Sequence record: MT611523.1
Length of the DNA: 64,000 nt
DNA from: Escherichia phage DK-13
Direction: 5' to 3' (one strand)
Positions 7,321 through 45,568 of the stretch are shown here, piece by piece. Position 1 is the first letter of the stretch, and each line of letters starts with the position of its first letter. Position numbers and translations under genes: made by a program. The notes beneath the pieces are model-generated. The model did no database searches, was not told the DNA's origin, and worked only from the letters and a program-made list of their open reading frames with translations.

Positions 7321-7328
7321 TATTTATA
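7321..7328 (-). promoter_or_regulatory. T4-type late promoter TATAAATA (soc)
   Basis: exact TATAAATA on minus strand about 30 nt upstream of soc ATG. Confidence 0.55.
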
Positions 7329-11133: not shown

Positions 11134-11165
11134 AGTTTCCTCATTTCAATGGCCCCGAAGGACCA

Positions 11166-11333
11166 TTATACTGTAGGTTTATCGTCTTTGTTCTTACGCT
11201 TTTTTGATGGGATTTGTTCAGGGCCTTTATTGACAACTGCCCCGGAAGTGGTACCTGTTGCGATATTAGTTGGGTTTCCACCTGCATCACCGGCAACCAT
11301 ATTTTCGTTGATAAAATCTTTGAATGTTTTCAT
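11166..11333 (-). CDS. small protein with capsid-targeting-like N-terminus (55 aa)
   Basis: MKTFKDFINE followed by I-x-E resembles the T4 internal-protein CTS (MKTYQEFIAE); exact TATAAATA 17 nt upstream. Confidence 0.4.
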   Translation of the reverse strand: MKTFKDFINENMVAGDAGGNPTNIATGTTSGAVVNKGPEQIPSKKRKNKDDKPTV

Positions 11334-11349
11334 AACACCCCCTTTCCGC

Positions 11350-11357
11350 TATTTATA
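11350..11357 (-). promoter_or_regulatory. T4-type late promoter TATAAATA
   Basis: exact TATAAATA on minus strand upstream of ORF 11166-11333. Confidence 0.45.
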
Positions 11358-11544
11358 CAACGAAGATAGCTTTATCACCATTTGCATCAGTCACTTCATA
11401 AGTGTCTTCATGATACAATGGAATAATCCAGGTAACACCATCATCAGCGATAACATGGATTGCTTCTTGGTCTTGCGACACGATTTCATATTCTTCAAAA
11501 ATCTGGAAGACGGAAATCTTAGAGCCCGTACACATTGCACTCAT
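11353..11544 (-). CDS. hypothetical protein (63 aa)
   Basis: co-oriented acidic ORF. Confidence 0.3.
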   Translation of the reverse strand: MSAMCTGSKISVFQIFEEYEIVSQDQEAIHVIADDGVTWIIPLYHEDTYEVTDANGDKAIFVV

Positions 11545-11740
11545 ATTGTTCCCTTCTTTTAATCAGTTGGCGATGTGCCTTTTTAAGTTTACGAATCTGA
11601 CGTTTAGTCGGTCGAGCAACGTAAGCTTGAGTAGTTACTCGTCCAAAAACTCCATACTTGGGAGACGGAGTATCAATAAAGACTTCCCATTGACAAGAGT
11701 AACTATATATTGCTTTAGAGAATTGGGTCAAAACAAACAT
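11519..11740 (-). CDS. small basic protein, PTKRQIR paralogue 1 (73 aa)
   Basis: W..hI ... Y.ARPTKRQIRKLKK motif shared with ORFs 12887-13126 and 35730-35915. Confidence 0.45.
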   Translation of the reverse strand: MFVLTQFSKAIYSYSCQWEVFIDTPSPKYGVFGRVTTQAYVARPTKRQIRKLKKAHRQLIKRREQYECNVYGL

Positions 11741-23979: not shown

Positions 23980-24198
23980 TTAATCAAAGTATTCATATGC
24001 AAACCAGGCATTGTGTCTGTTCGCGATTATTTTAACATATTCTTCACCGAAAGCGTTTTGTAAGTCACGTTCAGTAACAAGGTGTTCATCTTTCGAAAAG
24101 GTATTAACTAACACATATCGTTTAATTTCAGGGACAGCCAGTAAATGCTGCCCGGTTAAAAAATTGCTCATAAATAATATTATCCGTTGCAGTATCAA
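23980..24198 (-). CDS. hypothetical protein (72 aa)
   Basis: co-oriented ORF. Confidence 0.35.
   Translation of the reverse strand: MILQRIILFMSNFLTGQHLLAVPEIKRYVLVNTFSKDEHLVTERDLQNAFGEEYVKIIANRHNAWFAYEYFD
24169..24176 (+). promoter_or_regulatory. late-promoter-like CATAAATA
   Basis: CATAAATA 35 nt upstream of plus-strand HNH ATG. Confidence 0.3.
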
Positions 24199-24211
24199 AC
24201 AAGGGTCTGAT

Positions 24212-24928
24212 ATGAATTATAACATCATTTACCAAAAGCTTATTAGCAGAGCATTGAATCGCAAATTAACCACATACTCTGAAAGTCATCACATTATACC
24301 CCGTTGCATGGGTGGGGCAGACGACGCTTCAAATCTTGTTGATTTAACTCCCGAGGAACATTTCGTTTGTCATCAACTGTTGGTCAAAATGCATCCAAAT
24401 AATGCTTCTTTGGTCTATGCCGCGCGCATGATGACAGTTTCCTCACCAAACGCCGACAGAAGCAAAAACAAATTATTTGGATGGCTTCGTCGTAAAAACT
24501 TGGAAGCTCAACAAAATAAAATTTTCTCCGATGAAACCAGAAAGAAAATGTCAGAATCCGCCAAATTAAAACCGAGAGTTGAATGTCCACACTGTGGAAA
24601 AACCGGTCTCGTTGGCAATATGAATCGTTGGCATTTTGATAACTGTTCCAAAGGTCCAAACAAGGTTGTTCATACTATTCCAGAAAAACAAAAGCAAAAA
24701 ATTTCAGTAGGATTAAAACAAGCTAAACATGAAATTTTAACTTGTGAATTTTGTGGTCTTGAAGGTAAAAAGTGTGTTATATCCACTCACCAACAATTCT
24801 GCAAATCCAATCCAAACCGGAAGAAAAAGGTGGACCCCAAAATTCAGTGTCCACATTGTAATGTAGTCGGTACGCCAGCCAATATGAAACGTTGGCATTT
24901 TGATAACTGCAAAATGAAGCCTCAATAA
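24212..24928 (+). CDS. HNH homing endonuclease with C-terminal zinc-finger repeats, plus strand
   Basis: SESHHIIPRCMGG...N...H HNH core; three CxxC-x(n)-W/HxFDNC repeats; ATG 24212 chosen (ORF track starts at 24011). Confidence 0.75.
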   Translation: MNYNIIYQKLISRALNRKLTTYSESHHIIPRCMGGADDASNLVDLTPEEHFVCHQLLVKMHPNNASLVYAARMMTVSSPNADRSKNKLFGWLRRKNLEAQQNKIFSDETRKKMSESAKLKPRVECPHCGKTGLVGNMNRWHFDNCSKGPNKVVHTIPEKQKQKISVGLKQAKHEILTCEFCGLEGKKCVISTHQQFCKSNPNRKKKVDPKIQCPHCNVVGTPANMKRWHFDNCKMKPQ

Positions 24929-42819: not shown

Positions 42820-43026
42820 TCACTTGCGACGACGTTTTGGTAATGGTTTAGGGAAGAACATTGCTTTACCTGCAGGGGTCAAAGTCACACGCAAAGCATT
42901 ACCAATACCAAGGGATGCTTTAACCAGACCTTTGGCTTTTAACTCACCAAATGCTTGACGTTGTTCAGGGTCACGAGTGTTAACCATCAGACCTTTTTCA
43001 CCAGCAGCTTTGATTAATTCTAACAT
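42820..43026 (-). CDS. small basic protein (68 aa)
   Basis: ATG after class-B leader; C-terminal KPLPKRRRK tail. Confidence 0.4.
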   Translation of the reverse strand: MLELIKAAGEKGLMVNTRDPEQRQAFGELKAKGLVKASLGIGNALRVTLTPAGKAMFFPKPLPKRRRK

Positions 43027-43067
43027 TTTATTCTCCGTTTGTTTATTTGGTAACTCAGTATGGAATC

Positions 43068-43096
43068 ATTATGCCTCATGACCATCTGGTTGTACA
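43068..43096 (-). promoter_or_regulatory. early promoter with class-B leader
   Basis: -35 TGTACA (43091-43096), 17-nt spacer, -10 CATAAT (43068-43073), leader GATTCCATACTGAGTTACCAAATAAAC. Confidence 0.5.
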
Positions 43097-43143
43097 CATA
43101 TACTAAATAAAAATACTTAATAAAACCATAAAGGAGAAAGTTT

Positions 43144-43890
43144 ATGATTTTATCCGGAAGAACTGTTGATGAACTCAATGAAAAAGTCCAGGCTGCCTTG
43201 GCTGATAATTGGTATTTGTTTGGTTCTACTATGGTGTTGCCGAATACCCCTACAGATAGCAAAGAGCGTTTTTTCCAAACTATGTCCAGCTCGGAAACTC
43301 AGATACCGGGTCCGCCTGGTCCCAAAGGAGAACCGGGTGTACCCGGACCAAAAGGAGACCCAGGTGGGGATGGAAAATCTTCTTATCAGATATGGCTTGA
43401 CTTGGGAAATACAGGAACTGTTGATGATTTTTTAACTGATACAGCAGGAAAGAGGGAAAAATCCGAGGTGTTTTGGAGTGGTATAAACGTTCTATTAACT
43501 AATGGTACGACTTCAAACATAATTAGTGTTTTAAAGGGGATTCCACCGACTGCAGGGACTCTATCTCCGTTTTTTAGAACCACTGATGATAAGTTGTGGC
43601 CATATAACCAAGACAGAAGCCTAATGTTTAAACTCAACCTTATTGGTAATTTTGCAGGAGCCTCGCAAGCTCGAAGTATAACATTAAATTTCGTTGGAAC
43701 CAACGGAAACACTTATATACAGAATCGTCCGGAAAATGCTACAGATATTTTGTCTTTTACAACGTTCTTTAGCATTGATAAAGATGGGGCAATGGCAACC
43801 AATGGTACAGCTATAACTGTTATGCCAAATGGCGGCAACTTTACAATAACCTCCGCATTGTTAGTAGCCGAACAAACAGTGACTTCATAA
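43144..43890 (+). CDS. collagen-repeat protein (248 aa), plus strand
   Basis: SD AAGGAGAAAG 5 nt before ATG; seven consecutive G-X-Y triplets (GPPGPKGEPGVPGPKGDPGGDG) after a ~60-aa N-terminal domain, then a ~165-aa Gly/Thr/Asn-rich C-terminal domain. Confidence 0.6.
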   Translation: MILSGRTVDELNEKVQAALADNWYLFGSTMVLPNTPTDSKERFFQTMSSSETQIPGPPGPKGEPGVPGPKGDPGGDGKSSYQIWLDLGNTGTVDDFLTDTAGKREKSEVFWSGINVLLTNGTTSNIISVLKGIPPTAGTLSPFFRTTDDKLWPYNQDRSLMFKLNLIGNFAGASQARSITLNFVGTNGNTYIQNRPENATDILSFTTFFSIDKDGAMATNGTAITVMPNGGNFTITSALLVAEQTVTS

Positions 43891-43913
43891 ACAAAAAAGG
43901 GCCATCCGGCCCT
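43891..43913 (-). terminator. rho-independent terminator
   Basis: AGGGCC-ATCC-GGCCCT hairpin followed by T-run on minus strand. Confidence 0.5.
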
Positions 43914-44155
43914 TAGATTGCACTCCAAAAATTATGGAATCTTATAGTATTGATAGCCCAGTTAACAAACCTGCGAGTTTGTTTGGGAGTTGGTTTGCAT
44001 ATGTACTTATTGTTGATTCGTCTGCCAGTTTCCCGACAGACTGCTTCGAGATACCAGCGCCGACCTTTATTAGGTCTTCCGTATGATAAGAAGACCTTCA
44101 TTTCTTCATTAACGATAATAGGAATTGTGGTTGTCAAGGTATACCTCTTCAACAA
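43913..44155 (-). CDS. hypothetical basic protein (80 aa)
   Basis: co-oriented ORF; overlaps the 3' end of the nucleotidyltransferase-like gene in another frame. Confidence 0.3.
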   Translation of the reverse strand: MLKRYTLTTTIPIIVNEEMKVFLSYGRPNKGRRWYLEAVCRETGRRINNKYICKPTPKQTRRFVNWAINTIRFHNFWSAI

Positions 44156-45119
44156 ACTTGTCCCAGAACTTCATGTCTACCTTATCAGGCATACCATTCT
44201 TAGCAGCCTGGATGGCCAGAACTTCAACTAAATCGACAGTATCTTCAAGAAGTTCTTGAACTTCTTTAAATGGTAATTCACCAGCTTTAATCAGCTTAAT
44301 GATAGAGGCTTCACGCAATGGGAATACCAAGTCACCTGTTTGGTAGATTTCCATCAATTGATACCCTGCACGATAAGCATGGCTCAGTGCTTTCCAATCA
44401 ATACCTTCGTTAGCTTCTGCTTTACGAGCACGTTCACCATATTCGGCGTCGAGTTTATTCAGAGATTGCTTGAGCTCGATTAATGACAGAGTAGTTTGGT
44501 ATTTACGACCGAGGACAGTATAGAACGTTTGAGGACCTGTTTTCTCATGGTTATGAAATACCCATTCGCAGAACTCGTTTTCAGGGAGTCTGTGTTTGAT
44601 ATCTTCTACCTTAGTACGTCGTTGCTTAGCGGAACCATCTTCTTGATAGTCAACCCATTGTTCAGGAATCTGGTTAACAATTTCCAATACACCACGCAGT
44701 GCAGCCAATCGAGAACCTTTAACACCATATTTGGAAGCTTGCTTACGGACGTACCCCAAATAGGCTTTCATGTTAGTTGTATAGAACCGTGAACGGTTGT
44801 CCTGAATAAACTTCCATACATCTGGTAAATCGGATTTGACTACCAGGTCAGCCGGGGTGTGAATCATATCCAGAGCAACGGTTTCGCCATCGGCCGCCAG
44901 TTTAAAGAAATATTTCAGACTATAAAGTTCATGGTCAACATCATCTTTTGTATTTTTGGTGGCCGTGTTATTCGTGTTCAGGTTGGTATGGTTCATCGCC
45001 GTCCCAAGTAGAATATCACGAGGATGCGGAACAAAGATTTCTTTAAAATCGACATCAGATTCTGGGGTACTTGTTCCATAAAGGTGGCTACCGAAGTAGC
45101 CTTTCATAACTGTTCTCAT
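44109..45119 (-). CDS. Pol-beta-superfamily nucleotidyltransferase-like protein (about 336 aa)
   Basis: G-S-x9-D-x-D motif (GSHLYGTSTPESDVDF) with a third acidic residue ~60 aa later (LDMIHT); ATG 45117-45119 overlaps upstream stop (ATGA). Confidence 0.55.
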   Translation of the reverse strand: MRTVMKGYFGSHLYGTSTPESDVDFKEIFVPHPRDILLGTAMNHTNLNTNNTATKNTKDDVDHELYSLKYFFKLAADGETVALDMIHTPADLVVKSDLPDVWKFIQDNRSRFYTTNMKAYLGYVRKQASKYGVKGSRLAALRGVLEIVNQIPEQWVDYQEDGSAKQRRTKVEDIKHRLPENEFCEWVFHNHEKTGPQTFYTVLGRKYQTTLSLIELKQSLNKLDAEYGERARKAEANEGIDWKALSHAYRAGYQLMEIYQTGDLVFPLREASIIKLIKAGELPFKEVQELLEDTVDLVEVLAIQAAKNGMPDKVDMKFWDKFVEEVYLDNHNSYYR

Positions 45120-45568
45120 TTTTTGTCCTCGAAGTGGATTACAGGACACATCTTAGATTTACGAGCTTTAATGTATTGAATAACGATGTTTTCTTTAGTT
45201 TCCTTTCCTTCACGTTTGGCTAGAATACGTTGCCATTCCTTTTCTTCTTTACGTAAATCATACCATGCGTGTAAATTCATCGCACCTAATGCCAAACCAA
45301 TGGATAGTGCAATAATAAGAGCTATTGCAACCAACCCTAAAACAAACCCTAGACTCAACAGAACAGGAGTACTTAATACAAAGAAATTCTCTAATACACC
45401 AACGCCTGCAACAGTTAATCCGAAAAGCGTACCACCTGCAACAACAGCACAAGCAAAACAAGCCCAAACCATTTTCCAGAAATAAGCACATAGAGAGTGC
45501 GGTCGAGAATGACTGTCATAAAAACGGTCATGTAATTTAACGTGCCAAGAGTTTGCATTGATAATCAT
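45116..45568 (-). CDS. membrane protein (150 aa)
   Basis: co-oriented ORF with three or four hydrophobic helices. Confidence 0.45.
   Translation of the reverse strand: MIINANSWHVKLHDRFYDSHSRPHSLCAYFWKMVWACFACAVVAGGTLFGLTVAGVGVLENFFVLSTPVLLSLGFVLGLVAIALIIALSIGLALGAMNLHAWYDLRKEEKEWQRILAKREGKETKENIVIQYIKARKSKMCPVIHFEDKK

Follow-up and report, generated by a model that had tools for sequence, protein, structure and literature searches.

A plus-strand gene in the early region of DK-13

The 64,000-nucleotide stretch of Escherichia phage DK-13 analysed here (sequence record MT611523.1; hereafter the window) comes from a member of the T4-like genus Gaprivervirus, with a Straboviridae genome of about 170 kb. 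It carries, at positions 43144-43890, a plus-strand gene whose product consists of an N-terminal domain that resembles DUF1737, a short collagen-like spacer and a C-terminal knob of the Sf6 type. Within the nrdC-mobD 'hyperplastic' early region, the gene is convergent with an nrdC.11-type nucleotidyltransferase gene (44109-45149). The features of the locus, with the basis of each assignment in parentheses, are as follows.

43098-43143, plus strand: 5' end of the cassette, with late-promoter-like motifs and the Shine-Dalgarno sequence (indel junction, orthologue comparison)
43144-43890, plus strand: coding sequence of 248 amino acids (aa), 26.6 kDa, pI 4.7 (ATG start)
43144-43293, plus strand: DUF1737-like N-terminal domain, aa 1-50, putative virion (capsid) anchor (profile comparison, AlphaFold2)
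43309-43380, plus strand: collagen-like spacer of eight uninterrupted G-X-Y triplets, aa 56-79 (direct reading)
43381-43449, plus strand: helix-loop-helix junction SYQIWLDLGNTGTVDDFL, aa 80-102, about 22 aa (AlphaFold2, motif recurrence)
43450-43887, plus strand: Sf6-type knob with a TNF/C1q-like jelly roll, aa 103-246, about 145 aa (PF16532, 3RWN, AlphaFold2)
43897-43914, both strands: hairpin AAGGGCC-ATCC-GGCCCTT shared between the convergent genes (sequence, energy)

A first-pass annotation of this DNA, made from the sequence alone, had described a 248-aa open reading frame (ORF) with a strong Shine-Dalgarno sequence running against the flow of its neighbours. The frame is present exactly as described, with AAGGAG at 43131-43136, 7 nucleotides (nt) 5' of the ATG, and its unusual orientation is borne out by a strand survey of the window: all ORFs of at least 130 aa that are not nested in a longer minus-strand ORF lie on the minus strand, with three plus-strand exceptions (43144-43890, a homing-endonuclease gene at 24011-24928 and an ORF at 11149-11562). 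At the DNA level the gene shares 99.9% identity with PP428_gp126 of Escherichia phage vB_EcoM_RZ. Its plus frame matches Pfam PF16532 (Phage_tail_NK; E 2.6e-32, 112.3 bits, cut-off 27) and PHROG 1030, which is filed under 'tail' (E 2.8e-67), and the ratios of nonsynonymous to synonymous substitution (Ka/Ks, Nei-Gojobori) are 0.08 against EAWsc9, 0.18 against C6, and 0.12-0.13 against PEi20 and fHe-Yen9-01. On the strength of these family matches and ratios, 43144-43890 is a genuine protein-coding gene under purifying selection. Inspection of the 248-aa product revealed no signal-peptide-like N-terminus and no membrane segment.

That all neighbouring genes lie on the minus strand would favour a different account, in which the minus-strand ORFs 43386-43712 and 43713-43928 are the expressed products and 43144-43890 is a chance frame or a decayed one. 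However, strong family matches are found solely in the plus frame, which also shows the low Ka/Ks values, and the hairpin at 43914-43897 forms a canonical minus-strand terminator that halts early transcription ahead of the gene. We compared nine copies of the gene, comprising the DK-13 gene, its near-identical EAWsc9 counterpart and seven diverged homologues. Stops are present in all three antisense frames of each of the nine, and the longest open stretch moves from phage to phage; the two antisense ORFs are therefore noise, which agrees with their earlier description as low-complexity noise. The family matches of the plus frame and the antisense stops refute expression of the antisense ORFs, and we regard this account as extremely improbable.

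The C-terminal domain is an Sf6-type knob

The match to PF16532 runs from aa 99 to aa 244 and spans profile positions 30-175 of 175, and the knob aligns with the Sf6 knob crystal structure (PDB 3RWN) at E 1.3e-31, with a jelly-roll fold that can be superposed on it. The C-terminal domain belongs to the Sf6-type knob family. Four of its residues (E108, K163, S210 and D212) align with the L-glutamate-contact residues E146, K200, S248 and D250 of Sf6; in alignment A1 the first three are invariant and D212 is at least 90% conserved. These four contact residues are conserved in all of the non-P22-like, or 'outside', knob homologues (Leavitt et al. 2013, PMC3741392).

The overall layout proposed in the first-pass annotation, with an N-terminal domain, a collagen stalk and a C-terminal globule, is confirmed. 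The C-terminal part had been described as a single domain of about 165 aa rich in Gly, Thr and Asn. The composition holds, these three residues making up 32% of aa 80-248; the single domain does not, since this part divides into the junction (80-102) and the knob (103-246). A likeness to C1q and BclA had also been suggested, and this is apt in structural terms; it does not extend to a sequence relationship, as the knob gave no match to the Pfam C1q or TNF families at E values up to 1.

The N-terminal domain resembles the DUF1737 capsid-binding domain

AlphaFold2 runs on the full-length protein and on the domain alone agree on a beta-alpha-beta-beta arrangement of the N-terminal domain, with a strand at residues 2-5, a helix at 8-20 and strands at 23-32 and 42-48. 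In the NanS-p esterase gp84 of phage phi24B, cryo-electron microscopy places a DUF1737 hexamer on the central pore of the capsid hexons; the domain there has one helix and three antiparallel strands, with a Tyr42 'tooth' that enters the hexon pore (bioRxiv 10.64898/2026.04.10.717836). The one helix and three antiparallel strands characteristic of DUF1737 are also seen in our model. All eight of the diverse family N-domains we examined matched the DUF1737 model (PF08410), with a best E of 3e-6, and no other model was matched consistently; one family member (P0025) scored 26.2 bits. A profile of the N-domain family aligned with gp84 aa 1-60 (residues 9-56 aligned) at an hhalign E of 1.4e-5 and 80% probability. 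A search with the N-domain profile through 1.84 billion representative proteins retrieved family members with different C-termini, and also small proteins of 55-110 aa whose own DUF1737 scores, 26-65 bits, exceed the cut-off. Foldseek comparison of the N-domain model with BFVD placed several proteins named as DUF1737 in the top 30, at TM scores of 0.5-0.7 and weak E values of at least 0.1. From these profile and model comparisons, we assign aa 1-50 as a DUF1737-like domain.

The PDB held no solved DUF1737 structure in our search: the N-domain profile drew coiled-coil noise alone, and the matches of phi24B gp84 were confined to its esterase and lectin domains. In the InterPro count, 2528 of about 3000 DUF1737 proteins are single-domain, and they come from about 2000 viral and bacterial species, prophage genes included; phi24B is the one case in which the domain has been located in a virion, and in phi24B gp84 loses its cargo domains by cleavage following release (all bioRxiv 10.64898/2026.04.10.717836). 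Aromatic residues occur in the 'tooth' loop of the homologues from fHe-Yen9-01, RB43, Margaery and PEi20, and are missing from that loop in DK-13, C6 and AnYang.

Two further proteins from the search of representative proteins carry an N-domain of the same subfamily ahead of other sequences. One of 520 aa (P0024) has two tandem N-domains and then repeats of the form '...IQWR...W..L...', and the other, of 151 aa (P0026), has a single N-domain, after which come repeats of the form 'ATVTAG...NVKLAAT'. The putative anchor may therefore be a portable module that has been given other cargo in these two proteins.

A short collagen-like spacer and a recurrent junction

The collagen-like tract reads GPP GPK GEP GVP GPK GDP GGD GKS, with 29% proline. 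It is uninterrupted, as had been observed at the outset, and it contains eight triplets (aa 56-79) in place of the seven first counted. The tract is too short to reach the cut-off of 27.2 bits for Pfam Collagen (PF01391), against which it scores 17.9. The number of triplets ranges from 0 (RB43, Margaery, Carvaje) to 15 (fHe-Yen9-01) across the homologues of sequenced phages.

The junction between spacer and knob is predicted by AlphaFold2 to hold helices at residues 80-86 and 93-101. Its motif, SYQIWL...GNTGT..DFL, recurs in collagen-like phage fibre proteins, often several times in one protein, and is repeated in P0011-P0015 and P0023. The part of the protein covering aa 53-131 is matched by PHROG tail-fibre families.

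The gene is an optional single-gene cassette

The complete 2.4-kb neighbourhood is present in eight phage records, and about 0.8 kb with the gene is missing from 19 further close relatives, in which the flanks are 89-96% identical. Comparison with the gene-less phages UPEC07, VR20 and VR7 places the left indel junction at 43097/43098, and the right junction falls just before the hairpin. The positions of both junctions define the unit as a single-gene cassette, made up of the promoter-like stretch, the Shine-Dalgarno sequence and the ORF, with the terminator of one early unit on one side and the next early promoter on the other. On the minus strand the hairpin is a canonical terminator, with a 7-bp stem followed by the T-run TTTTTTGTTTAT; on the plus strand it has a folding energy of -12.7 kcal/mol and lacks a U-tract. 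In the gene-less relatives the hairpin stands within the same AAAAAAGG...CCTTAGATT context. A foreign base composition of the cassette is not seen, the GC content of 39.7% being within the range of the flanks (37.7-40.0%), and mobility by a homing endonuclease is not supported, as no such gene was called among the ORFs or annotated genes 2-6 kb to either side; the only one found is that at 24011-24928, 19 kb away.

Full-length homologues occur in Gaprivervirus, Dhakavirus, Kanagawavirus, Tegunavirus and Pseudotevenvirus, in every case opposite to the flanking early genes, and the homologues of T4-like phages mostly adjoin nrdC.11. The gene is also found in Carvaje-like siphoviruses of about 60 kb, where in Carvaje itself it lies directly 3' of the large terminase gene and on the same strand. 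In a search made with the full-length alignment, the three-part architecture was found solely in T4-like contigs and in these ~60-kb Carvaje-like contigs.

The C6 gene (L009, 3001-3756) is a mosaic. Its first ~330 nt are those of AnYang, most 60-nt windows being 100% identical, and from nt ~340 to 759 it has 93-98% identity with DK-13, so that the N-domain, stalk and junction are AnYang-like and the breakpoint falls near the start of the knob, at about aa 110-117. This indicates that the knob has been exchanged as a module. Decayed copies are found in metagenomic sequences: three (P0016, P0018, P0021) are frameshifted after the N-domain, and in a fourth of 45 aa (P0019) an internal deletion has fused some 32 residues from the start of the N-domain to the last 13 of the knob. 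Such truncated and deleted remnants fit a dispensable gene, and the pattern of presence, absence and decay shows it to be dispensable, as far as genome comparison can tell.

Late expression is supported by the promoters of the orthologues

In fHe-Yen9-01, AnYang, C6 and PEi20 the gene is preceded by a perfect T4 late promoter, TATAAATA, that starts 30-33 nt 5' of the ATG, and RB43 and Margaery carry CATAAATA upstream of the gene; in the orthologues the motif, TATAAATA or CATAAATA, is placed 22-25 nt before the ATG. The corresponding stretch of DK-13 reads ACTAAATAAAAATA and contains two versions with one mismatch to the late promoter, ACTAAATA at 43102-43109 and TAAAAATA at 43108-43115. On the plus strand of the 64 kb, TAAAAATA occurs three times and TATAAATA is absent, against about four occurrences expected from composition. 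On the minus strand, which is the early-gene strand, TATAAATA occurs four times, at 7328, 11357, 48185 and 63697.

Nolan et al. (2006) report that the first T of the late promoter is poorly conserved in several T4-like phages, and that late promoters are found only before orthologues of T4 late genes. The supplementary lists searched contain no entry near 7525x-7527x before RB43 ORF128w, which is uninformative, as CATAAATA may have been excluded from that list. The suggestion that opposite-strand placement implies late expression stands up through the strand and the promoters of the orthologues, and less so through DK-13's own promoter, which is just a one-mismatch version. The place of the Carvaje gene directly behind the large terminase gene also speaks for late expression. 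Late transcription is well supported for the family, and is uncertain in strength for DK-13.

A proposed late, virion-displayed fibre

We propose that the product of 43144-43890 may be a trimeric fibre that is made late, is dispensable and is displayed on the virion, probably at the head, a reading to which we give about an even chance. With the gene on the late strand between early units, and with gp55-type promoters before its orthologues, comparison indicates that the protein would be made late, and the one-mismatch promoter in DK-13 means that its output may be low. The knob would trimerise, as it does in the crystal structures of the Sf6 and HS1 knobs; the intersubunit residues that hold L-glutamate in those structures are conserved here. 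The knob trimer could then nucleate the junction and the eight-triplet spacer into a short three-stranded stalk, the length of which would be free to vary between phages from 0 to about 15 triplets. Three DUF1737-type domains would anchor this fibre on the outside of the virion, most likely on the capsid shell, to go by the phi24B preprint. Since DUF1737 is known from a capsid, the head rather than the tail is indicated as the attachment site. We speculate that the six DUF1737 domains of one hexon of the phi24B type could come from two trimers, and that the distal knob may bind a surface or environmental ligand and so help the particle to find its host or stay near it, as a dispensable accessory comparable to Hoc. 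Two observations are consistent with display on the particle. A knob-only homologue, gp119 of the Vi01-like myovirus Sajous1, was recorded with 16 spectra from virions purified on caesium chloride (CsCl; PMC10892097), which is supporting but indirect, and we count the knob swap in C6 as a signature of host interaction.

Several observations weigh against a head-anchored fibre. The N-domain of DK-13 itself scores 17.5 bits against PF08410, under the cut-off of 24, and in the hhalign alignment the phi24B 'tooth' Tyr42 stands opposite Asp38 of the DK-13 protein, in a loop that is three residues longer. The AlphaFold2 model is of a monomer and of moderate confidence, with a confidence score (pLDDT) of 70.8 and values of 63-73 in the N-domain. 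The phi24B evidence comes from a single unreviewed preprint of April 2026 and concerns the unrelated T=9 capsid of a podovirus, on which DUF1737 is hexameric, whereas the collagen and knob are trimeric. In phi24B DUF1737 uses the hexon centre, where Hoc sits in T4, and a Hoc-like protein (PHROG 1149, E 6.5e-99) is among the products of the near-identical phage RZ. The upstream motif of DK-13 departs from TATAAATA at a core position. We found no proteomic data for the phages with full-length homologues (fHe-Yen9-01, vB_YenM_P8, RZ, GuL6, CfP1, Carvaje and PEi20), and no transcript or structural data for any full-length homologue in the literature.

Two other locations of the protein have to be weighed against the head, and we consider each of them unlikely, with the same low probability. 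The protein could be an accessory fibre or tip knob associated with the tail, its N-domain docked on the baseplate, the collar or the tail. The family background points this way, as the Sf6 and HS1 knob is the distal tip of a tail needle, PHROG 1030 is a 'tail' family, the collagen and junction part has its PHROG matches among tail-fibre families, and proteins of tail-fibre appearance also carry the junction motif; moreover, the centre of a T4 hexon is expected to be taken by Hoc. Yet T4-like myoviruses lack a P22-type needle, and the DK-13 protein has a DUF1737-like domain and 24 collagen residues where a needle has a plug and a coiled-coil shaft. The sole DUF1737 domain located by experiment is on a capsid, the Carvaje gene has the terminase gene on one side and the portal gene on the other, outside any tail module, and the baseplate and fibre genes of the T4-like phages are distant from the nrdC hyperplastic region that holds the gene there.

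Alternatively, the product may be a late soluble protein outside the virion that is freed at lysis, for example as a trimeric, lectin-like coat of debris or neighbouring cells, with a role for DUF1737 other than capsid binding. The conflict with Hoc would disappear if this were so, and the optional gene, decaying in some lineages, would be accounted for, as would the predominance of single-domain DUF1737 proteins with just one located in a virion, the cleavage of the gp84 cargo after release and the lack of proteomic detection of any full-length homologue. Against it, the fibre-like build and the variable stalk make most sense with one end fixed to a particle, the Sajous1 knob homologue was found in purified virions, and the protein lacks a signal peptide or membrane segment. 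Head display remains our preferred reading.

A broader form of the head-fibre proposal, which we put forward only tentatively and consider doubtful at present, is that a second, optional means of decorating the head, additional to Hoc and Soc, exists in T4-like phages and in the ~60-kb siphoviruses. This system would be collagen-stalked and TNF/C1q-like-headed, joined to the hexon through DUF1737, with two trimers supplying the six anchors (a 6:3 mismatch), and its knob would be swapped in the manner of a receptor-binding module. If this were correct, the system would correspond in phages to BclA and C1q, and would give the head of a model phage group a new device for adhesion to host or mucus.

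The gene itself is not new, having been noted in 2013; we did not find the recognition of the DUF1737-type anchor or the head-fibre hypothesis described. The layout of anchor, spacer and knob points to the capsid as the place to look for a protein whose function has been called unknown since that time. If the head-fibre proposal is true, it would extend DUF1737 capsid anchoring from one Shiga toxin (Stx) podovirus to the T4 group, provide a natural, optional display scaffold in phages that are widely used for display and therapy, and place on a virus head the design of anchor, variable collagen and TNF-like trimer known from Bacillus spores and complement C1q. If it is wrong, the gene would be an ordinary accessory late gene.

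Other features of the window

The shared terminator also ends a minus-strand gene at 43913-44137 (about 74 aa; listed as 43913-44155 from a TTG start), which overlaps the 3' end of the nrdC.11-like gene. It matches DUF7279 (31.7 bits, cut-off 24.5) and PHROG 8921 (E 8e-40), and is annotated in VR7 (ORF100c) and UPEC07 and absent from the RefSeq annotation of RZ. On the other side of the cassette, the ~50 nt at 43024-43072 that immediately precede a minus-strand gene ending at 43026 have a copy of 72-82% identity in the next intergenic gap of the relatives (L011-L013, positions 441-484/512), upstream of the nrdC.8-like gene. This is probably a repeated element of early promoter and leader.

The other two plus-strand exceptions lie farther away. 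The gene at 24011-24928 (305 aa), between two minus-strand genes, belongs to a homing-endonuclease family (PHROG 655, E 1.4e-67) and has a weak C-terminal zinc-ribbon match. The ORF at 11149-11562 (137 aa, ATG start) occupies a gap between minus-strand genes and gave no Pfam or PHROG match; the minus-strand TATAAATA at 11357 lies inside it.

Comparison with known systems

The RefSeq label of this gene family is 'tail needle knob', and Pharokka propagates the same label. We rejected identity with the P22-type tail needle (P22 gp26, Sf6 gp9), as the protein has no N-terminal plug, no long coiled-coil shaft and no tail-module context: the AlphaFold2 model of the 248-aa protein is without a long helix, aa 1-50 being DUF1737-like and aa 56-79 collagen. 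With all three of these needle attributes missing, the label is misleading for a myovirus, and it covers the C-terminal domain alone. In comparison with the Sf6 gp9 and HS1 knobs (PDB 3RWN, 4K6B; PF16532), the DK-13 protein is encoded by a myovirus outside the tail module and lacks plug and shaft, and the Sf6 contacts L255 and K277 are replaced by M217 and L239.

The nearest relatives are RB43 ORF128w and the other 'outside' homologues of T4-like phages, which belong to the same family, share the three-part layout and the late strand and are syntenic beside nrdC.11. The RB43 and Margaery homologues have no collagen triplets, in contrast to the eight of DK-13, and identity with RB43 is 47%. Knob homologues of T4-like phages were noted in 2013, when their function was called unknown (Leavitt et al. 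2013, PMC3741392).

The likeness to phi24B gp84 lies in the N-terminal domain of one helix and three strands and in the order of anchor, linker and cargo. The cargo is an esterase there and a collagen-knob fibre here, and the capsid in our case is of the T4 type with Hoc. BclA and F-BclA of Bacillus and the C1q/TNF proteins are similar in design, with no detectable sequence relationship, and the collagen tract of DK-13 is far shorter than theirs. Finally, T4 Hoc, the phi29 head fibres and T5 pb10 have the same role as that proposed here, as non-essential, outward capsid appendages that may aid adherence, and their folds are unrelated to that of the DK-13 protein. As Hoc is also present in this phage lineage, the product of 43144-43890 would be an additional system and not a replacement.

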